Assembly (NCBI GenBank): GCA_964599375.1
Contig: CAZREW010000015.1
Location: forward strand, 10,028-74,027
DNA: 64,000 nucleotides
Reading direction: 5' to 3'
DNA from: an uncultured bacterium
GTDB lineage: Bacteria > Krumholzibacteriota > Krumholzibacteriia > Krumholzibacteriales > Krumholzibacteriaceae
Notes under the pieces: generated by a model
The model's database searches: none
Told to the model about the DNA's origin: nothing
Seen by the model: only the letters and a program-made list of their open reading frames with translations
Translations under genes and position numbers: made by a program
Part shown: positions 12,053 through 23,479 of the stretch, piece after piece
Position numbering within the stretch: the first letter of the stretch is position 1
How the letters are laid out: every line of letters starts with the position of its first letter

Positions 12053-13587
12053 CAGAAATCCCAGACGAATGAGAGGTGACCGAATCCCTCGTCCATGTCA
12101 TCGCCGCCGCCCGAGGCGGAGGCGTATCCCGCCGCCGCCTCGATGAACGACCCGTGCCCGAGATCGACATTCAGAGCGGCGCAGAAGGTCCGCTCGTTTT
12201 TGACTTCGCCGCTCGGGAACGGAGGATCTGGATCTTCTCCCCAGTCCCATTGCCGCATGTCGCTTCCCTCACCTCTGCGTACCCACGTCCCCTCGACCGA
12301 GAGCAGCGCCCTCGGATGCAGAGGCGTGGAGACCCTCAGCGACCATCTGTCGGCGTCGGGGCCGAGCATGTCCCCGATGATCCTGCCGGCCTTCTTCCCG
12401 CCGTCCCCGGTGACGTAGGCTGTCAGGATGCTGTCCTTGTGGGAGTATGTGTAGATACCGATCCTCGTGTACGAAGCCCGCAATCCGACATCGTGCCCCC
12501 AGGGTGTCACGAGCGCGTCGGCGCCGACCGTCCAGCCGAGCTTGTCCGGCGCCGGCGGATCACTCTCGTACTGGACGTCGTCCATCAGCAGCTCGCCAGA
12601 GATGACGAGCCCCCTTGTGACCGGTACCTTGATGTCGGCCGACCAGAGGATGTTGTCGTCCTCTTTCTCGCTGTACTGGTTGGCGTAGAAAGCGCCGAAG
12701 GGGACGAGGTATGCCCAGTCGAGATCCCTGCCTGTATACAGCACTGTCTCGCTTATCCCCGCGTATATCCTCGCCGGCAGCCTGATCTCGAGCCTGTGCC
12801 CGGCGAGCCTGCGCGGCGCGTACGGGTCGAGCATCGCCTGGAACATCCTCAGCGTGAACCTTCCCATCGATATGTCGAAGGCGATATGGTCGTGCGAACC
12901 GGAGGTCGACGACATGAGCAGGCCGCCTGGCCCCTGCGGGCCCCACTGGATGTAGTCCCTGCCGAGCTGCAGCCTCCACCTGCTCCCCGCGAACGCCACA
13001 TACCCGCGCTCGTATTCGAATGTCAGGCCGCGCCAGCTCCTTACCCTGTCGAGTTCCTCCTCCCTCTCCCTTTCCGGACCCGTCATCAGCACATAATCGG
13101 TCTCGAATGTGACTGCGCTCCCCATGCCGAGAAGGAATGTCGGGATAAGGAGCCCGTTCGCCTCTGCGTCGCCGTCCTCCTCGGCCCGCTTGACGAGCGA
13201 GCCGCCCGCTGCGAGGTCGATCGTGAAAAAACGCCTTCCCTCCCTCAAGGTCCAGAGCGGGCCGTCCTCCCTCTCTTCAGGTGAGTTTTCCATCCCCTGG
13301 AATTCCTCCCTGAGCCGCCCGAGGATGAACTCCTGGCGCGGCGTGAGAACCACGCACCCACCCTTCATCGACTGCATTATGCGATCGACGTACGCCTCGA
13401 CTTCCGATCTCGAGTAAGGGGACGCGGGATCGAGGGCGACCAGCCCGAGTGTCTCGAACGTCCTGAGCGCGGGATATATCCAGCTTCGCGGTGGTATCGT
13501 CTCGTCCGAGCAGAATGACGCCGAAGGCGCCAGCAGCAGGGCGGCCGCGACGAATATTGCTGCGGGGATCGATCTGCGGGGCGTCAT
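12052..13587 (-). CDS. Capsule assembly Wzi-family outer-membrane protein
   Basis: Signal peptide (MTPRRSIPAAIFVAAALLL), N-terminal helical segment (WIYPALRTFETLG), GRDYIQWG, LAGHRLE, GPDAD motifs, alternating beta strands, terminal Phe. Start at the ATGA overlap, 13587. Confidence 0.7.
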   Translation of the reverse strand: MTPRRSIPAAIFVAAALLLAPSASFCSDETIPPRSWIYPALRTFETLGLVALDPASPYSRSEVEAYVDRIMQSMKGGCVVLTPRQEFILGRLREEFQGMENSPEEREDGPLWTLREGRRFFTIDLAAGGSLVKRAEEDGDAEANGLLIPTFLLGMGSAVTFETDYVLMTGPEREREEELDRVRSWRGLTFEYERGYVAFAGSRWRLQLGRDYIQWGPQGPGGLLMSSTSGSHDHIAFDISMGRFTLRMFQAMLDPYAPRRLAGHRLEIRLPARIYAGISETVLYTGRDLDWAYLVPFGAFYANQYSEKEDDNILWSADIKVPVTRGLVISGELLMDDVQYESDPPAPDKLGWTVGADALVTPWGHDVGLRASYTRIGIYTYSHKDSILTAYVTGDGGKKAGRIIGDMLGPDADRWSLRVSTPLHPRALLSVEGTWVRRGEGSDMRQWDWGEDPDPPFPSGEVKNERTFCAALNVDLGHGSFIEAAAGYASASGGGDDMDEGFGHLSFVWDF

Positions 13588-14741
13588 TCGGCGGGCTGTC
13601 CCTGTTCCCCGGCGGTCACTTGTGATGCGCCGGCTGCCAAGCGGTAGCACTCGCTCGCCTTTCTCTTGTCGTCCTGCTTCTCGTACGAGATGCCGAGACC
13701 GAAATAGACCTTGGAGTCGTCGGGATTGATCTCGGTCACCTTCCTGAAATATTCCTGGGCCTTCTGCGGCTGCTCCAGCCTGTTGAAGCACTCGCCCACG
13801 TAGTAGAGTATCGTCGCGTTGCCTGGGTTGAGCCTGGCGGCCTGCTCGAGATGCTTGAGAGACTTGCCGTAGACTCCCTTGCGGTAATATATGAAACCGA
13901 GGTAGAAGAGAGCGTTCACGTTGTCGCCCTCCAGCTTCAGGATCTTCCTGAACTCGGCCGCCGCGTCGTCGTAGAGATTCTCGTTTATAAGCGCGAGGCC
14001 GAGGTTGTAATGTCCCTCGACCGAAGAAGGATCTATCTCCAGCCCGATCCTGAACTCCTTGATCGCCTGTTCCTTGTCGCCTTCCTCTCCATACAGCGCG
14101 CCGAGGTTGAAGTGCGCCTCGGCGTTGCGGGGGTTGTGCTGCACCGCCTTGCGGAACTGCTGAAGTGCGGCGCTGCGACGGCCCTCGAGATCAAGGATGT
14201 AGCCGAGGTTGGTATACGATTTCGAATGGGTCGGATCGGTGGCTATGGCCTGCCTGTACATCCTCTCGGCCTCGCCGTACCTGCGGCTTTTCGTATATGC
14301 CACTCCGAGCCGGTAATAGCATTCCGGATTGTCGGGCTCCCTCTCGATCGCCCTCATGTGGAACCCGATCGCCTCGTCGAACCGTCCCTGCAGCTCGAGG
14401 AGCCTGCCCATCCTGTAGAGGGGGAGAGCGTCGCCATCGCTCATCGCGTCGATCCGCCTGTAACCCTCGAGTGCCAGCTCGTACTTTCCGATCCTTTCGA
14501 ACATATTGCATGCCTCCAGGATCTCCTCTTCGTCGGCGTCCGTGCTTACTATAACGTCGCGAAGGCAGGCCTCTGCCCTCGGGCTGTTTCTCTTGCGCAG
14601 ATAGAGTTCCGCGAGCTCGAGGACTTCCTCGACATCAGCCTCGCCGAGGGAGGATTTCTTTCTCAGGCGGGCGATCTCCCTGCTCTCTTCCCGCACCTCA
14701 CCCCTGGTGAACTCGAGAAGCTTCTCCCATCGCAGGCCCAT
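13584..14741 (-). CDS. Tetratricopeptide-repeat protein
   Basis: About 9 tandem 34-aa TPR units (e.g. YYRLGVAY, AHFNLGALY, GHYNLGLAL). No signal peptide. Confidence 0.9.
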   Translation of the reverse strand: MGLRWEKLLEFTRGEVREESREIARLRKKSSLGEADVEEVLELAELYLRKRNSPRAEACLRDVIVSTDADEEEILEACNMFERIGKYELALEGYRRIDAMSDGDALPLYRMGRLLELQGRFDEAIGFHMRAIEREPDNPECYYRLGVAYTKSRRYGEAERMYRQAIATDPTHSKSYTNLGYILDLEGRRSAALQQFRKAVQHNPRNAEAHFNLGALYGEEGDKEQAIKEFRIGLEIDPSSVEGHYNLGLALINENLYDDAAAEFRKILKLEGDNVNALFYLGFIYYRKGVYGKSLKHLEQAARLNPGNATILYYVGECFNRLEQPQKAQEYFRKVTEINPDDSKVYFGLGISYEKQDDKRKASECYRLAAGASQVTAGEQGQPAE

Positions 14742-14862: not shown

Positions 14863-15333
14863 TCAGAATCCGAAGCCGCGCCTCGAATAGTAGGGGTTGA
14901 GATAGTTGCCCTGCGAGTACTGCAGCCTGACCATCAGGTTCTCGCTCGGTTTCCAGGTGACGTTTAAGTCCGGGATCATCACCTGGTAGCCGTTCATGCC
15001 ATCGCCGCCCATCATGTACGAGCCCACTCCGACATCCCAGTTTAGCGTGACGGAGCCGCCCATCTGATAGCTGAAGTGGCCCATGTAGTATCCCATGCCG
15101 ACGTCGCCGAATCCCTTCGACGAAGCGTAAGAGAATCCTACTGAGCTGTGGAAGTTCAGGCCGGGTATCCTGAGAAAGCCCGCTCCGGGGTCTACCGGAT
15201 TGAGATAGTCATCGAACACGCTCCGCTCGGGCGCGGGAGTCGTCACGGTCTGCTGCGCCACTGCGGAAGCTGCCAGCAGAGCGATGGCTGTCATCAACGC
15301 AATAGCGGATGTGATTCTTCTCATGATGCTCAC
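14863..15333 (-). CDS. Secreted beta-strand-rich hypothetical protein
   Basis: Sec signal peptide ending AVA-Q; several amphipathic Tyr/Gly-rich strands; terminal Phe. Start may be 15324. Confidence 0.7.
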   Translation of the reverse strand: MSIMRRITSAIALMTAIALLAASAVAQQTVTTPAPERSVFDDYLNPVDPGAGFLRIPGLNFHSSVGFSYASSKGFGDVGMGYYMGHFSYQMGGSVTLNWDVGVGSYMMGGDGMNGYQVMIPDLNVTWKPSENLMVRLQYSQGNYLNPYYSRRGFGF

Positions 15334-15338
15334 CCGGC

Positions 15339-15692
15339 TTACCCGCCGAGAAGTTCCCTGATCTTTTCCTTGAGGGGAGTGAGGTCCACGGACTTCACTA
15401 TATAGGCCTCGGCGGCCCAGGTCTTAAAGTTGTCCTTGAAGTCCGAATAGGCCGAATTGATTATCACCGGAAGATCCTTGCGGCGCTCGACTGTCATTAT
15501 CAGCGCGTCAATCCCGCTCTCGTCGCCGAGCTTCATGTCGAGGATCATCAGGTCCGGCGATTCCTTCTCGACGGACTCCAGCGCTTCAGCCACAGTCCCA
15601 GCCGATACCGTCTCATACCCCTCGCGACGCAACTCCTCGCTGTAGAGCTTCCTTACATTTATCTCGTCGTCTACTATAAGGATCTTTGCCAT
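15339..15692 (-). CDS. Single-domain response regulator (CheY-like receiver)
   Basis: KILIVDDE, PDLMILD (phospho-Asp), INSAY and VKS (conserved Lys); 117 aa with no output domain. Confidence 0.92.
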   Translation of the reverse strand: MAKILIVDDEINVRKLYSEELRREGYETVSAGTVAEALESVEKESPDLMILDMKLGDESGIDALIMTVERRKDLPVIINSAYSDFKDNFKTWAAEAYIVKSVDLTPLKEKIRELLGG

Positions 15693-15795
15693 CGGCTCCC
15701 CCGAATAAAAAACCGCGATTCAGCCGAATCCCGGTTCTATCATCGCCATAATTTGTACACCGGTCAAGTTCTTTTGTTCCGCCGGAGAGGTGAGA

Positions 15796-16953
15796 TCAGC
15801 CCGCATGGACCTTGATGTCGAGTATTACCTTTATAGGCACCTCGCTGCGGATCTCCTCCTCTGAAAGTTCGATCGGGACCGTGACCATCTTCGAGGGGCG
15901 TTCCTTGTTCTTCTCGGCCGAAACGGGCCCCTCGTCAGCGGCCACCTCCGGCTTTTCCTCCGGCAGATTGACGAGCGGATCGTTTATAAATCCTTCTTCT
16001 TTCTTCCCATGCGCCTCTACTACCTCCTGAGCCACAGCGACGCTGGATTTTACCTCCGCTTCCTGTCCCGCAGGTTCCCGGCCGTTGTCTCCGAGCTCGA
16101 CCATGTGCCCGTACTCCTCGTACCCTTCCCGAGCCATGCCGAGATCCTCGGCAGATTCTTTCTCACCCTCGGTCAGCACGTGATCGACAAACTCAGAGAC
16201 AGACTCGTGCTCCTCTTCTCTCTCCTCTGCGTAACCTGAAGTCTCGCTCTCGCCTGCCTCTGAGTCAATGCCCTTTGCCGCGCCCTGCGCTACTACCTCT
16301 GCGTCGACCAGTCCTTCGTCCTTGCCGCTTTTCTTACCCTCTTCCTTTCCGGCCTTGATGTCCTTGAGCTCACACCTGAGCTGCTTGAAGACCAGCTTGG
16401 CTATACCCTCGAATGTCTCGTACACCCCTCTGCCGTCGGTGGCCACGGCCTCGAACGAGGGGACTTTCCATTCGGAGTTAAGCCCCGCGTCGAGCTTCTT
16501 CCTGTCCATGCATCCCGGCACGTCCCTCTTGTTGTACTGCATCACCCAAGGGGTCCCGGAAAGTGACATCCCGATCTCATTGAGGTTCTCCTCGAGGTTA
16601 CTGAGGCTCTCGATATCGTCCTCCAGCCTGTCCGGGGAGGAATCAGCCACGAACACAAGGGCATCCACACCCTTGAGCACCAGCTTTCTGGTCGCGTTGT
16701 AATAGACCTGTCCGGGGACCGTATAAAGAAGGAACCTTACCTTGAGGCCGCCGAGTTCGCCGACCTCGATCGGAAGGAAGTCAAAAAAGAGCGTCCTGTC
16801 CGTACGCGTCTTCATCGAAACCATCTTGCCCTTGTTCTCGCGCGGGAGCTTGGAATACATGTACTCGAGGTTCGTAGTCTTACCGCTGAGCCCCGGGCCA
16901 TAATATACGATCTTAATGTTAACTTCTCCGCCTGCGTAGTTATAGACAGCCAT
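15796..16953 (-). CDS. mglA: MglA-family small Ras-like GTPase with ~190-aa acidic C-terminal extension
   Basis: KIVYYGPGLSGKTTNL, RTLFFDFLP, LYTVPGQVYYNATRKLVLKGVD, FVADS and QYNKRD motifs. Start at MAVYNY (16953) behind an AAGGAG RBS. Confidence 0.9.
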   Translation of the reverse strand: MAVYNYAGGEVNIKIVYYGPGLSGKTTNLEYMYSKLPRENKGKMVSMKTRTDRTLFFDFLPIEVGELGGLKVRFLLYTVPGQVYYNATRKLVLKGVDALVFVADSSPDRLEDDIESLSNLEENLNEIGMSLSGTPWVMQYNKRDVPGCMDRKKLDAGLNSEWKVPSFEAVATDGRGVYETFEGIAKLVFKQLRCELKDIKAGKEEGKKSGKDEGLVDAEVVAQGAAKGIDSEAGESETSGYAEEREEEHESVSEFVDHVLTEGEKESAEDLGMAREGYEEYGHMVELGDNGREPAGQEAEVKSSVAVAQEVVEAHGKKEEGFINDPLVNLPEEKPEVAADEGPVSAEKNKERPSKMVTVPIELSEEEIRSEVPIKVILDIKVHAG

Positions 16954-17198
16954 TATCAGCCACTCCTTGAAAAAGCCGGGGCGGGCTCCCGACCCGCTCA
17001 CCTGGTGCTGAAGACAAGGAAGCAGAATCCGGAGCAGGCGATACGTCACTTGAGCTAGGGTGTTCACTTCGTGATTCAAATGGAAGCGCCAACCCCGGCA
17101 GAGGGACAGAACCGCAAGTAACGTGCCACTGAAACATTATCAGCAGCATTTTTAACCCACTGTGAAAACGATGTTTAGGAAGGGTTACGCGATGTATG

Positions 17199-17231
17199 AA
17201 AAAAGTCCTCTCCCTGAAAATGAGAGAGGAC
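17199..17231 (-). terminator. Intrinsic terminator after the lipoprotein gene
   Basis: GTCCTCTC (17205-17212) / GAGAGGAC (17224-17231) stem, followed by T6 on the minus strand. Confidence 0.75.
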
Positions 17232-17275
17232 GACGTAAACTGCAAGTTACACTTTGCTGCCGTCGGCTGGAGACG

Positions 17276-17620
17276 TCAATCCGAACATTCGTGGCCGTCG
17301 CAGCTGTAAGTAAGGCTTTTCGTGCTGCCGTCAGAGACGGTCACCTGATCCGTCCAGCAGAAATATGCATTGCCGATCTTGGCGTTGCTGGCCATATAAA
17401 GATCATATGTCCCTGCCGCCAGCGGGAAGAAAGCGGGCTCCTCGGAAGAAGCGAGGCCCTGGTACTCGCCATCGACGAAGACCCACACGCCGAAGGAAAG
17501 GCAATCCGTGTAATTGAGCCTTATGCCCGTGGGTGCGACTTCGGTGCTGTTGTCTGAGCATCCTGCCAGCAGCACCGGCATCAGGGCCAGTACGAATATA
17601 ACGGCACCGAGCTGCCTCAT
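17276..17620 (-). CDS. Small Cys-containing lipoprotein, hypothetical
   Basis: Lipobox LLAG-C after a hydrophobic signal; short beta-sandwich (WVFVDGEYQG, GTYDLY), loosely PEGA-like; 3 further Cys. Confidence 0.7.
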   Translation of the reverse strand: MRQLGAVIFVLALMPVLLAGCSDNSTEVAPTGIRLNYTDCLSFGVWVFVDGEYQGLASSEEPAFFPLAAGTYDLYMASNAKIGNAYFCWTDQVTVSDGSTKSLTYSCDGHECSD

Positions 17621-17732
17621 CTGAACCTCCCTTTACAGTATTAAAGCCGGTCACCGGGCACTCCGGGGCCCCCGACCTGAAGGAAATCTAACAAATGAGA
17701 GGCGGAGCGACAAGTGAAAAACGGGCGGTCGG

Positions 17733-18209
17733 TCAGGCCTTCTGGAGCCTGGACCCGCACCAGGGGCAGAAATTGAACCTTTCGCTCACAGTGTGCCCGC
17801 AACCGCAGGGAACCTCCGGACCCTCGTCCTTTTCCCCTTCGGAAGAGACTGAGCTGAAGCAGTTTTTCTTGAGCTGGTCGTAGAGTTCCTGGGCCTTAGG
17901 CAGGACGAACTCGTAATCCCTTCCAGAGCAGACTATCACGCGGGGATGGAGGTCGCCTCCCTCGATGCGTACGTCATCGACAGTCGCGAGGTCGATCGAT
18001 ACACCTCTCATCCCGAAGGACGAATCGAGATGGGACACCTGGAAGTTAAGCCGGCAGTCGGTCATCTCGAGAACGCCCCGGGCTGCGATCAGGCGGCTGA
18101 CGTAGTATATCGCTTTTTGCATGAAAAGAGTCTTTTCCGTGCATACCTGCAACGTTTTACCTCCATCGATAGTATGTGCCTGATCTTTGCCAGAACCGTG
18201 CCATTTCAA
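17733..18209 (-). CDS. Hypothetical protein: PH/GRAM-like domain plus C-terminal zinc ribbon
   Basis: GVLEMTDCRLNF...SIDLATVDDV resembles a PH/GRAM fold; C-terminal CGCG...FNFCPWCGSRL zinc ribbon. Start uncertain. Confidence 0.6.
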   Translation of the reverse strand: MKWHGSGKDQAHTIDGGKTLQVCTEKTLFMQKAIYYVSRLIAARGVLEMTDCRLNFQVSHLDSSFGMRGVSIDLATVDDVRIEGGDLHPRVIVCSGRDYEFVLPKAQELYDQLKKNCFSSVSSEGEKDEGPEVPCGCGHTVSERFNFCPWCGSRLQKA

Positions 18210-21996: not shown

Positions 21997-22815
21997 TTAT
22001 GAGTCATTGAGCTTCTCGAGCTCGATGAGCCTGCCGCCGTTCCTGAACTCGACCAGATCCATCAGTTCCTTAATCAGGTAGATCCCCCTGCCCGAGCCCT
22101 TGTAGATGTTCTCCTGCTCGGTGGGATCGGAGATCTCCTCCGGGATGAACCCCTCCCCCTCGTCCTCGATCTGGATGCGTATGCGGCTGCTGCTGATATA
22201 TACGCGGACCCTCACCTTGAGCTTCTCGTCAGACCTGTTGCCATGCACTATGGCGTTACTGAGCGCCTCGTCCACGACCATCGGCAGGTTGACTCTGCTC
22301 TCCTCGGGAGGGAACCCGAACTCGGCGGAAAGAAACGAGATGAGGCGGTTGACCCCGAGTATCCGGGACAGCTTGCTCGGAACGACGAAATCAAGCCTCA
22401 CGTGTCCTTCCCTTATCAGCTCGTTGTTTCTCGGGAACGGGATGCCGCGGTCGGCGGCGTGGCGAAGGACGCCCTGCGCGTCCGCCCTGCTGAAAGGCGG
22501 TGTGATTATACCGTCGATCCCCATCGATATGTACGTCAGGTAGGCCCTCTCGTCGCACTCGCCGGTCACGATATACAGCGGCGATTCGATCATCGACAGC
22601 CTGAGCTGCCTCGTCTTGCCAGGATCGAGCTTTCCGGAGGGTAGAAAGAGGAGCAGGTTGGGACAGCAGTCTCCCGCCGACTGCAGCGCCTTGAGGAACC
22701 TCGGGAATGTCTTGTACGCCTTTACCTCGACATCCTCCGGGAGGCGTGCCTCGGCAAAGAACTGGTCATGCAGCGCAGGCTGCAGATTGAGTATATACAA
22801 TGAAAGTCTGTTCAC
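21997..22815 (-). CDS. Pseudo-receiver fused to an RsbW-like anti-sigma/Ser kinase (HATPase_c_2) domain
   Basis: C-terminal VDEALSNAIVHGN, IEDEGEGF and GSGRGIYLIKELMD boxes. N-terminal alpha/beta receiver-like pattern without the acidic residues. Confidence 0.8.
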   Translation of the reverse strand: MNRLSLYILNLQPALHDQFFAEARLPEDVEVKAYKTFPRFLKALQSAGDCCPNLLLFLPSGKLDPGKTRQLRLSMIESPLYIVTGECDERAYLTYISMGIDGIITPPFSRADAQGVLRHAADRGIPFPRNNELIREGHVRLDFVVPSKLSRILGVNRLISFLSAEFGFPPEESRVNLPMVVDEALSNAIVHGNRSDEKLKVRVRVYISSSRIRIQIEDEGEGFIPEEISDPTEQENIYKGSGRGIYLIKELMDLVEFRNGGRLIELEKLNDS

Positions 22816-22831: not shown

Positions 22832-23431
22832 TCAGAATACCTGCTGCCCGTCTGCGAGTATCTCGTTAAGCGCTGTACGGAAATACTCGCTCGATTCGGT
22901 CACTTCGGAACCGATCTTCTCCTTGTAAGCCTCCCAGGCCTTCTTTATCTCGGGGCCCAGCAAGGTCATCAGGTCACCGTTGGCGAGTCCGCGGTCGCGC
23001 TTCTCCTGGTTATACACCAGGATGTCGCTCACGAAGACACGGGCGAGCCTTTTCGCCCTCTCGCGTTTCTTCCTGATCTCGGGCGTCTCGACTACCGTCT
23101 CCACGACAGCCGGCTTCGCCTCGAAAGCCGCGTCGTTCCCGGAGATCTCAGCCTCTTCCTCTAAGATCGCGGATTCAGGCTGCGTCATCACAGCGGCCGC
23201 CCTGTGCTGCTCGGGAGCTCCCCATCCCCCGCTCACCTGAGCCTCGGCCAGCGGAACGCCCGTGGCGTACTCGTTGGTCGTGATCTCGATCCCGGCATCC
23301 AGAGCCGCCGGAGGCGGAGTGAGTCTCCATATGAACCGGCACTTAGGGCATCTGACCCTGATCCCCGCGGAGGGGACCTTCTCATCCCCGAGCATGTATT
23401 TCGTCTGGCATCCGTCACAGGTGACGATCAT
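22832..23431 (-). CDS. MJ0042-type zinc-ribbon protein with a C-terminal RomX-like domain
   Basis: N-terminal MIVTCDGCQTKY...KVP..GIRVRCPKC; Ala/Glu/Pro linker; C-terminal AKRLARVFVSDILVYNQEK...YFRTALNEIL helical domain. GGAGG RBS before 23431. Confidence 0.75.
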   Translation of the reverse strand: MIVTCDGCQTKYMLGDEKVPSAGIRVRCPKCRFIWRLTPPPAALDAGIEITTNEYATGVPLAEAQVSGGWGAPEQHRAAAVMTQPESAILEEEAEISGNDAAFEAKPAVVETVVETPEIRKKRERAKRLARVFVSDILVYNQEKRDRGLANGDLMTLLGPEIKKAWEAYKEKIGSEVTESSEYFRTALNEILADGQQVF

Positions 23432-23479
23432 TTCGACCGATCCTCCATCCTGCACCGAGCCGGCCGTTCGATCGGTCCT

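Follow-up and report, generated by a model that had tools for sequence, protein, structure and literature searches.

The gene studied here encodes a GTPase of 385 amino acids whose residues 1-195 are, by their sequence, a bona fide group-1 MglA with the complete set of catalytic motifs. This domain is continued by an acidic C-terminal tail with conserved motifs that recur in two uncultured bacterial phyla. Apparently, the tailed MglA is a variant of a well-studied switch that has not been described before. In the literature we found no account of a tailed MglA, no characterised clade of this type, for which the initial annotation had proposed a check, and no work joining Krumholzibacteriota to MglA. 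The window, i.e. the whole stretch of DNA analysed, is 64 kb long.

The GTPase domain and its C-terminal tail

15796..16953, minus strand: tailed mglA ORF, 385 aa (ATG at 16953, stop at 15796-15798)
16963-16968, minus strand: Shine-Dalgarno sequence AAGGAG of tailed mglA
16369..16953, minus strand: G domain, aa 1-195, a group-1 MglA small GTPase by its motifs (P-loop GPGLSGKT, R53-T54, TVPGQ with Q82, NKRD)
15796..16368, minus strand: C-terminal tail, aa 196-385 plus stop; 26% D+E, net charge -28, predicted to be mostly disordered

Residues 1-193 matched the solved MglA proteins of Thermus (3t12_A, E 1.2e-68) and M. xanthus (6hjh/5ymx, E 7e-67) in phmmer searches. The AF2 model was aligned to MglA chains by Foldseek with TM-scores of 0.85-0.91 relative to the target (E 5e-23). 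The MglA identity proposed in the initial annotation was thus borne out, and all four motifs it had listed (GPGLSGKTTN, RTLFFDFLP, TVPGQ and NKRD) were found in the ORF.

All catalytic positions of the G domain were invariant among 120 homologues, including the P-loop residues G19, G21, G24, K25 and T26. In the homologue alignment this also applied to the intrinsic arginine finger R53 next to the G2 threonine T54, to T78, V79, P80, G81 and Q82 of G3 and to N141, K142 and D144 of G4. The intrinsic arginine finger has been used as a criterion of MglA group 1 (Wuichet and Sogaard-Andersen 2015, PMC4316618). Since G21, R53 and Q82 are kept, the G domain looks responsive to a GAP.

The MglA proteins of M. 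xanthus and Thermus thermophilus (PDB 5ymx, 6izw, 3t12) are about 55-60% identical over residues 1-193 and have the P-loop, the R53 finger, TVPGQ with Q82, NKRD and the fold in common with the tailed MglA. However, they are single-domain proteins of about 195 aa encoded next to mglB, whereas the tailed MglA carries 190 additional residues and has no mglB within 10 kb. With 385 aa, and 360-600 aa among family members, the tailed proteins lie outside the single-domain limit of 150-240 aa. The reference survey took GTPases of 150-240 aa and discarded sequences over 240 aa (PMC4316618), and therefore missed the tailed clade.

A longer reading of the ORF from a TTG at 17079 (427 aa) was rejected because all homologues begin with MAVYNY/MVV.N. 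The database gene call for the same contig, P0001 (417 aa), starts upstream of the ATG at 16953 as well.

The full-length tail was present in more than 120 protein clusters and in 37 species-level genomes (Krumholzibacteriota). The same order of tail motifs was found in more distant, Latescibacterota-type proteins. The tail is consequently regarded as real, and no frameshift, which the initial annotation had named as a point to check, accounts for it. That MglA was joined to a downstream ORF by an error of assembly or annotation, namely a frameshift or an overlooked stop, is a practically negligible explanation, for which nothing was found beyond the upstream start of P0001 as a single annotation oddity, whereas the architecture recurs in independent clusters and also on complete chromosomes and metatranscriptome contigs.

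A profile of the tail, searched against 1.84 billion (1.84e9) representatives, matched tailed MglAs as the sole protein type. Neither Pfam nor NCBIfam placed a known domain in the tail. Against the PDB the profile returned bS6 alone at a non-significant E of 0.25, and the tail-only AF2 model gave zero matches in Foldseek.

In the full-length AF2 model pLDDT was below 50 at residues 208-351, and the model accordingly predicts a mostly disordered tail. Among relatives the tail measured 167-400 aa with net charges of -4 to -53 and up to 18% Pro. The linkers varied in length and composition, being Pro-rich and weakly acidic in related phyla, while the order of motifs was constant in the two phyla. 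The initial description of the tail as acidic and largely disordered stands. It is not plainly Glu-rich, as had been supposed, but holds an ordered series of four to five conserved motifs separated by variable linkers.

Conserved motifs and a hairpin within the tail codons

16282..16299, minus strand: motif M1, EVVAQG, aa 219-224, conserved in Krumholzibacteriota only
16174..16263, minus strand: motif M2, SEAGESETSGYAEEREEEHESVSEFVDHVL, aa 231-260, an acidic run followed by an amphipathic helix
16191..16265, minus strand: embedded hairpin with a 14-bp stem (ACUCAGAGGCAGGC / GUCUGUCUCUGAGU) and a purine-rich loop of about 50 nt, synonymous sites conserved
16093..16131, minus strand: motif M3, REGYEEYGHMVEL (YGHxVEL), aa 275-287; G282, H283 and L287 invariant in 120 sequences
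15973..15990, minus strand: motif M4, FINDPL / EFITDP (FI(N/T)DP), aa 322-327
15805..15891, minus strand: motif M5, the C-terminal cap KMVTVPIELSEEEIRSEVPIKVILDIKVH, aa 355-383, an extended segment, a short helix and an extended segment

The helix part of M2, [ST]V[ST]xx[IV][DE]xAL[RT]E, was also kept in Latescibacterota-type relatives. Within it, AF2 predicted the acidic amphipathic helix SVSEFVDHVL as helical at 253-260 with low confidence (pLDDT about 56-64), and the presence of the G domain brought no gain over the tail-only model. The counterpart of M3 in the wider family reads VGRVVDLD. EFITDP of M4 was duplicated in the relatives P0128 and P0144; judged from sequence, this suggests the kind of duplication typical of short linear docking motifs.

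The hydrophobic C-terminal motif (VTVPIEL...IKVILDIKV) pointed out in the initial annotation is present and conserved. It belongs to the M5 cap, whose two amphipathic extended segments are conserved in both phyla. All other tail motifs had low confidence throughout the full-length AF2 model, in which the cap reached a pLDDT of 69-83. Since it attained 81-86 in the tail-only model, i.e. without the G domain, we consider the cap a separate module; it had no structural match in the PDB. Docking of the cap onto the G domain was unsupported, its confidence being independent of that domain.

The bS6 hint together with the beta-alpha-beta-beta-alpha-beta order of the motifs had raised the idea of a ferredoxin-like domain with long loops. 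This idea was rejected, as the AF2 models spoke against it and M1 is absent from the Latescibacterota-type proteins.

Codons 230-255 combined conserved synonymous sites with a stable hairpin, and no other such region was found in the gene. On codon evidence, the strongest apparent protein conservation, EEREEEHESVSE in M2, is partly a nucleic-acid constraint. It could be argued from this region that the tail is mostly spacer and that its conservation stems from embedded nucleic-acid elements. However, the constrained synonymous region is limited to these codons. M3, M4 and M5 showed low non-synonymous and normal synonymous divergence, and in the FVDxVL part of M2 the amino acids were likewise kept while synonymous sites varied freely. 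Such a pattern in M3-M5 indicates selection on the protein. Moreover, these motifs persist in the Latescibacterota-type proteins, where the hairpin sequence is absent. The spacer explanation thus appears very unlikely and, as far as codon analysis can tell, is already largely refuted.

No second copy of the hairpin arm was found in the 64-kb window. A long-range duplex joining the 5' leader to the intragenic element was rejected as well, its energy being no better than that of other CDS windows.

Promoter, leader and neighbouring genes

17276-17620: upstream 114-aa lipoprotein-like ORF
17205..17231, minus strand: intrinsic-terminator-like hairpin and T-run, ending the upstream gene
17114..17128, minus strand: sigma-54 type promoter TGGCACgttacTTGC with -24/-12 elements
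16954..17099, minus strand: conserved, covarying structured 5' leader
17092-17099 with 16975-16982, minus strand: leader helix P1
17032-17037 with 16994-16999, minus strand: leader helix P2
17052-17065, minus strand: leader box ACACCCUAGCUC
17015-17022, minus strand: anti-SD-like leader element CUUCCUUG
15339..15692, minus strand: stand-alone CheY-like receiver, 117 aa, with D8, D9, D52, S80 and K99 present; 103 nt downstream of mglA
13584..14741, minus strand: cytoplasmic TPR protein, 385 aa, without signal peptide

The gap upstream of tailed mglA comprises 322 nt, the upstream gene ending at 17276. The initial annotation had described it as about 320 nt of non-coding DNA with a terminator. 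A terminator-like hairpin with a T-run lies at 17231-17205, but the gap is not plain non-coding DNA, as it also holds the promoter and the structured leader. The sigma-54 pattern had a single match in 64 kb, its TGGCA and TTGC columns were invariant in 27 loci, and a promoter of this type was found in Latescibacterota-type loci too. For the leader and the embedded hairpin (15600-17800) Rfam 15 gave no relevant match at E <= 1, and the leader box had no other copy in the 64-kb window.

Two neighbouring genes, which the initial annotation had passed over, are candidates for conserved partners on the basis of gene order, namely the TPR protein in both phyla and the CheY-like receiver in Krumholzibacteriota only. 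The receiver followed mglA in every Krumholzibacteriota locus that extends far enough (L020, being cut, is too short) and was 69-92% identical across these loci, but it was absent from the Latescibacterota-type loci. That it is an orthologue of RomR was rejected, since the PDB chains closest to it were generic stand-alone receivers such as 3a0r_B and no RomR-named chain appeared at E <= 1e-8.

In both phyla a TPR orthologue was located downstream of tailed mglA, and in the Latescibacterota-type loci it was the immediate neighbour. In three loci the receiver-OMP pair was separated from the TPR gene by insertions. Because synteny spans many housekeeping genes, from RecG to ValRS, the TPR gene may adjoin mglA because the gene order was inherited and not for a functional reason.

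No Roadblock/LC7 domain (Robl_LC7) was detected by Pfam among about 36 window proteins, all of them outside the dcw-cluster ORFs (~31-46 kb). tblastn with M. xanthus MglB (identical to PDB 6h5b_B) spanned the whole 64-kb window and 43 related loci, each at most 21 kb long, and gave no match (best E 1.2-1.3). In 43 of 43 loci no MglB-like gene was present within 10 kb, and at these loci mglB was not found within four genes of mglA, the distance that defines a coupled module. The small Pfam-less ORFs (138-aa Zn-ribbon, 114-aa lipoprotein-like, 156-aa OMP-like and 146-aa) were considered as divergent MglB and rejected for want of Pfam support; the Zn-ribbon and 146-aa ORFs matched nothing among PDB sequences. 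The missing adjacent MglB of the initial annotation is hence in agreement with our data. The term orphan used there holds for the neighbourhood (+/-10 kb, 43 loci), and in the whole-genome sense it goes beyond that scope.

Possible roles of the tail

The reading that we tentatively prefer is that of a catalytically complete MglA switch joined to a disordered, motif-bearing tether with an autonomous cap, in which the tail acts as a built-in adaptor. The tail would hold the GTPase physically to its partners, to a cellular address, or to both. Its likeliest partners would be the cytoplasmic TPR protein, whose gene lies downstream in each genome, and, in Krumholzibacteriota, the adjacent receiver. 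The best candidate for a contact is the acidic amphipathic helix of M2, which might bind to the receiver, to the TPR protein, or back onto the alpha5/beta2-beta3 pocket of MglA. Expression would proceed from the sigma-54 promoter through the structured leader. We infer each of these binding steps, and likewise the role of the tailed MglA in polarity or motility.

In Myxococcus these tasks fall, in trans, to the output region of RomR and to TPR effectors. In RomR a REC domain is combined with a long disordered region and a conserved C-terminal tail, which the protein requires to localise at the pole (bioRxiv 10.1101/2024.02.20.581209). The tail of MglA resembles this Pro-rich/Glu-rich output region in its length, negative charge and predicted disorder, in the high Pro content seen among relatives, in its short conserved C-terminal module and in its association with a receiver and MglA, and the layout of low-confidence residues followed by a confident, conserved cap is the same. 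In RomR, however, the output region is fused to the receiver, whereas here it is part of the GTPase and the receiver, where present, is a separate gene. The comparison is an analogy only, since sequence homology of the tail profile to RomR or any other protein was undetectable.

SgmX is a TPR effector of MglA (PMC7519303, PMC7668184). The orphan MglA of Bdellovibrio bacteriovorus, whose genome lacks mglB, binds the cytoplasmic TPR protein Bd2492 (PMC3983030). The tailed loci are similar in having an MglA without neighbouring mglB and a TPR partner candidate of about 350-385 aa near outer-membrane-related genes. On the other hand, the Bdellovibrio MglA is tail-less and its TPR gene is unlinked to mglA, and the tailed MglA retains G21.

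SofG of M. xanthus carries terminal extensions. It is an orphan group-1 GTPase of the MglA family that is not stimulated by MglB (PMC4316618). In contrast to the tailed MglA, SofG is a second GTPase beside a canonical MglA/MglB pair; at the tailed loci no canonical pair was identified.

A possible, though rather unlikely, alternative is that the MglA cycle is an ordinary one and that another part of the genome encodes a canonical MglB and perhaps factors of the RomX/RomY type. The sole task of the tail would then be to place MglA at the pole or close to the membrane, or to let it oligomerise by way of the cap. The GAP-responsive appearance of the G domain is consistent with this, as are the autonomy of the cap with its two amphipathic segments and the function of the RomR output region as a polar-targeting determinant. 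MglAs that are orphans by neighbourhood are also known (59/449 in the survey of Wuichet and Sogaard-Andersen, PMC4316618). However, four separately conserved motifs exceed the needs of a simple address tag.

We consider it unlikely that the tail is an allosteric regulator in cis, in which the helix EEHESVSEFVDHVL would dock onto the protein's own alpha5/beta2-beta3 pocket and tune exchange or hydrolysis, so that MglB is unneeded. Such a helix would imitate two known ones, the D/E-rich helix at the C-terminus of MglB and the Glu-rich helix in RomR. Baranwal et al. showed that the MglB helix binds a pocket of MglA (K181, K185, L64, I67) and speeds exchange, that the RomR helix can stand in for it, and that basic alpha5 residues co-occur with D/E-rich helices (PMC6785124). 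The MglB helix and the one predicted in the tailed MglA are both short, acidic, amphipathic and placed at the end of a flexible linker; the former acts in trans from a Roadblock GAP, whereas the latter would lie within MglA itself, with the pocket partly conserved. In line with this proposal the pocket retains its hydrophobic residues (V/I64 and I/L67), and 77-78% of 120 sequences carry K/R at positions 186 and 190. The helix motif is shared by the two phyla, and mglB is not nearby. Against the proposal, 90% of the family have Glu at the position equivalent to K181, the helix is modelled at low confidence to which the G domain adds nothing, and M3-M5 are left unexplained. Furthermore, a later study found absent or weak binding of RomR-Ct to MglA (bioRxiv 10.1101/2024.02.20.581209).

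A more far-reaching proposal, which we regard as improbable, is that in Krumholzibacteriota and Latescibacterota the tail of MglA itself has replaced the MglB/RomR-RomX layer, giving a one-polypeptide polarity switch flipped by two-component input. The acidic helix would sit in cis on the alpha5/interswitch pocket as a built-in toggle of the Arf style, while the remaining motifs and the cap would anchor MglA to a TPR hub. The CheY-like receiver, once phosphorylated, would compete for the helix in Krumholzibacteriota. The mRNA would be controlled separately by the sigma-54 promoter, the new structured leader and the intragenic hairpin, which lies about 35 codons past the end of the G domain and might act as a translational pause.

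MglA is the model of Ras-like bacterial polarity switching. Its logic is known almost wholly from Myxococcus; there, separate proteins (MglB, RomR/RomX and TPR effectors) provide the GAP, the GEF and the anchor. The tailed proteins point to a different wiring across two candidate phyla, with a GTPase whose disordered tail displays an array of conserved motifs, which has no linked MglB and which is expressed from a sigma-54 type promoter. The tail motifs are short peptides that could be used to seek new MglA partners, and the leader and the synonymous-site-constrained hairpin are candidates for new cis-regulatory RNA elements. The tailed clade would also offer a natural setting in which to ask if the allosteric pocket at alpha5 can be acted on in cis.

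The GTPase domain and the search for MglB

The gene analyzed here is located as follows.

15796-16953, minus strand: tailed mglA ORF, 385 aa, with the ATG placed 9 nt past AAGGAG

The 385-aa form is supported by the homologues, whereas the public gene call on the same contig (database entry P0001) uses an upstream start and comprises 417 aa (window 15796-17079). Amino acids 1-193 aligned end to end with the solved MglA structures of Thermus (3t12_A, E 1.2e-68) and M. xanthus (6hjh/5ymx, E 7e-67), with an identity to solved MglA proteins of approximately 55-60%. MglA chains superposed on the AlphaFold2 (AF2) model, calculated with 120 homologues as input, with TM values of 0.85-0.91 relative to the target. 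The close relation to Myxococcus MglA noted in the initial annotation was therefore confirmed, and the motifs quoted there were all present. Many JGI homologues are labelled 'signal recognition particle receptor subunit beta' and represent mis-annotated MglA-type GTPases.

According to the published definition of group-1 MglA (PMC4316618) the protein carries every catalytic feature of this group. The P-loop GPGLSGKT including G21, the intrinsic arginine finger R53 adjoining T54, the TVPGQ motif with Q82 and the NKRD motif were invariant across 120 homologues. Judged by these features, the domain has the appearance of a functional, GAP-responsive switch.

Pfam scans identified no Roadblock/LC7 gene adjacent to mglA or among the approximately 36 window proteins, and precomputed Pfam assignments of the neighbours together with tblastn revealed none within 10 kb in 43 related loci. 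The verified M. xanthus MglB gave best E-values of only 1.2-1.3 in tblastn against the whole window and all loci. The lack of an adjacent MglB, as initially annotated, thus holds. Since the searches covered the window and the loci, the gene is proven to be an orphan in the neighbourhood sense only, i.e. within four genes as defined by Wuichet and Sogaard-Andersen (PMC4316618).

Composition and motifs of the tail

The tail (aa 196-385) contains 26% Asp and Glu and has a net charge of -28. For aa 208-351 disorder was predicted by AF2 (pLDDT below 50), in agreement with the acidic, probably disordered tail proposed from the sequence. A frameshift or missed stop as its origin was ruled out, since query coverage was 99-100% in nearly all of the top 120 clusters of the database, with lengths of 360-450 aa, and tail-only patterns matched 37 genomes, nearly all labelled Krumholzibacteriota, when one genome per species was scanned. 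With the tail alone as a profile, a search of 1.84 billion representative proteins yielded nothing but relatives or fragments of this protein, so that the tail is confined to this GTPase.

A second search, started from the distant homologue P0133, revealed a wider family of tailed MglAs of 360-600 aa, whose named members belong to Latescibacterota. Longer linkers, rich in Pro (9-18%), separate their motifs, and the acidity ranges from weak to strong (net charge -4 to -53).

Alignments resolved the tail into five conserved islands with variable linkers in between.

aa 219-224: M1, EVVAQG
aa 231-260: M2, SE..ES...YAEEREEEHESVSEFVDHVL, ending in a predicted amphipathic helix
aa 275-287: M3, REGYEEYGHxVEL
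aa 322-327: M4, FI(N/S/T)DP(L)
aa 355-383: M5, KxVxVPxxLSEEEIxxExPVKVxLDIxV, the C-terminal cap

The motif order is retained in this wider family ([ST]V[ST]xx[IV][DE]xAL[RT]E, VGRVVDLD, EFITDP, ITVPV..SRSQ.RKTIPIKL.LEIQV.DD). EFITDP is present twice in the homologues P0144 and P0128; short linear docking motifs are often duplicated. In the codon-level comparison amino-acid changes were few and synonymous divergence was normal in M3, M4, M5 and the FVDxVL portion of M2, so that selection at these sites acts on the protein in this frame.

The cap reached a pLDDT of 81-86 in a model of the tail without the G domain. Because this confidence was kept, the cap is predicted to form a module of its own instead of adding a strand to the sheet of the GTPase. 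No structural match for it was found in the PDB. Of the Glu-rich tail with a short hydrophobic cap described initially, the conserved cap remains, but the plain tail is replaced by a motif array, and in relatives the linkers are Pro-rich. M2-M3 (aa 235-290, window ~16084-16251) showed a weak, non-significant profile similarity to bS6 alpha1-beta2-beta3 (E 0.25). A single beta-alpha-beta-beta-alpha-beta fold of M1-M5 would fit the motif order but was rejected, as AF2 did not reproduce it.

Expression signals and gene neighbourhood

Four elements were located upstream of and within mglA.

17231-17205, minus strand: terminator of the upstream gene
17128-17114, minus strand: sigma-54-type promoter TGGCACgttacTTGC, by sequence pattern
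17099-17092 with 16982-16975, minus strand: closing helix of the leader, GCCGGGGU/GCCCCGGC
16189-16266 (codons 230-255), minus strand: embedded element with synonymous-site conservation and a 14-bp stem

The upstream region, initially regarded as about 320 nt of non-coding DNA with a terminator, indeed comprises 322 nt and the terminator, but is not empty: it also carries the putative promoter and a conserved leader. TGGCACgttacTTGC is the only sigma-54-type match within 64 kb, and its TGGCA and TTGC columns were invariant in 27 loci. The leader of approximately 150 nt past the promoter shows nucleotide-level conservation between genomes with no more than 55-75% protein identity. Promoter and leader together span 16954-17128; the leader was conserved in 24 of 27 aligned loci, and was shortened or different in L021, L027 and L038. 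The closing helix was paired in 97.9% of cells with double (compensatory) changes at four of eight pairs, including C-G to U-A in 6 sequences. When combined with a second helix, the closing helix scored above every one of 500 shuffles and every slid control. Both promoter and closing helix were found in the Latescibacterota-type loci as well. The leader carries an invariant anti-SD-like CUUCCUUG, complementary to the Shine-Dalgarno sequence, and had no Rfam match.

Within the gene, excess codon identity among 27 species-level loci is confined to codons 230-255. Here, AGA always encodes R245 and GAA always E246; in 25-26 of 27 loci TCT is used for S251 and S253 and GTC for V252, and GGT is also among the fixed codons. 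The ends of this stretch pair as the 14-bp stem and enclose an SD-like loop rich in purines (GAGGAGAGAGAAGAGGAG). The stem was paired in 96.7% of cells, compared to 20-48% with the partner slid, and the predicted folding energy was -35 kcal/mol (z -3.7). As double changes are few, the RNA structure is plausible rather than proven. Part of the striking conservation of EEREEEHESVSE is thus not owed to the protein. Latescibacterota-type genes are devoid of such a sequence. The element could serve in processing, in protein binding or as a translational pause approximately 35 codons past the G-domain end.

The mglA-receiver gap (15707-15767, minus strand) contains a hairpin CCGGGAUUC/GAAUCGCGG followed by UUUUUU just before the receiver start, and a weak sigma-70-like match, TTGACC-17-GATGAT. 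The receiver may be transcribed in part independently of mglA. Metatranscriptome contigs from marine and freshwater sediment, at least 80% alike, span leader, G domain, tail and receiver of relatives; they show the presence of such sequences in transcript libraries and nothing more. Window 15300-17250 was recovered almost complete in salt-marsh metagenomes (runs X1-X6 and X25-X30 cover the metagenome and metatranscriptome matches).

In Krumholzibacteriota the order is Zn-ribbon protein, small lipoprotein-like ORF, a gap of ~320-350 nt, tailed mglA, CheY-like receiver, OMP-like protein of ~150 aa, TPR, Wzi-like, UbiA and BacA. Three conserved neighbours are listed here.

17733-18209 (inner ATG 18149), minus strand: 138-aa protein with C-terminal zinc ribbon, no family assignment
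17276-17620, minus strand: lipoprotein-like ORF, 114 aa, no family assignment
14863-15333, minus strand: OMP-like protein, 156 aa, with signal peptide, Gly/Tyr-rich beta-like sequence and C-terminal ...GFGF

The receiver was present in every Krumholzibacteriota locus whose sequence reaches that far. It has all phospho-acceptor residues and, with 69-92% identity across loci, is conserved as strongly as the G domain. The 156-aa OMP-like protein, whose gene always follows the receiver in Krumholzibacteriota, had no family match. Receiver, OMP-like gene and the two small upstream genes were absent from Latescibacterota-type loci; there, an orthologue (43% identical) of the TPR protein, which has no signal peptide, directly follows the tailed mglA.

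Common to both groups (loci L001-L043) is the order RecG, HD, Zn-ribbon, HATPase_c_2 protein, 146-aa ORF, MFS, GT4, LpxL-like, mglA, TPR, Wzi-like, UbiA, BacA, ValRS, RodZ-like and UvrB. Since this order is conserved across a far longer housekeeping stretch, adjacency to mglA alone is weak evidence of function. The RsbW-like HATPase_c_2 protein with its unassigned N-terminal half (21997-22815) adjoins a Zn_ribbon_4 protein (22832-23455, both minus strand), and both phyla retain the pair at a distance of a few genes from mglA. The approximately 36 window proteins scanned included no histidine kinase and no sigma-54 activator.

Proposed role of the tail

A built-in adaptor would fit the tail best, because it combines a disordered tether, four conserved motifs of which one can be duplicated, and an autonomous cap, with no confident docking to the G domain. 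This idea is supported by precedents. In Bdellovibrio, MglA occurs without MglB and has a cytoplasmic TPR protein as binding partner (PMC3983030), and SgmX is described as a TPR effector of MglA-GTP (PMC7519303, PMC7668184). RomR consists of a receiver, a long disordered region and a conserved C-terminal tail needed for polar localisation.

The main rival is regulation in cis, by a tail helix on the allosteric pocket of MglA. This pocket, built from alpha5 and the beta2-beta3 loop, is the site of action of the D/E-rich C-terminal helix of MglB and of a Glu-rich helix of RomR (PMC6785124). Its hydrophobic residues and two basic positions of alpha5 are retained in the tailed proteins; however, 90% of the family carry Glu at the position equivalent to K181, and docking was unsupported by AF2. 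An ordinary MglA cycle, with an unlinked MglB and the tail for addressing only, may also apply.

In comparison with reference group-1 MglA the tailed protein shares the catalytic features but differs in length (385 aa instead of single-domain, 150-240 aa) and in the absence, at the neighbourhood level, of a coupled mglB. The reference survey left out GTPases >240 aa (PMC4316618). The literature searched contained neither a description of tailed MglAs nor a link of Krumholzibacteriota or Latescibacterota to MglA. Based on this combination, the tailed MglAs appear to form a well-supported, previously undescribed subfamily, while their mode of action is a proposal: as an adaptor, the tail would link the GTPase switch to partner proteins or a cellular address.
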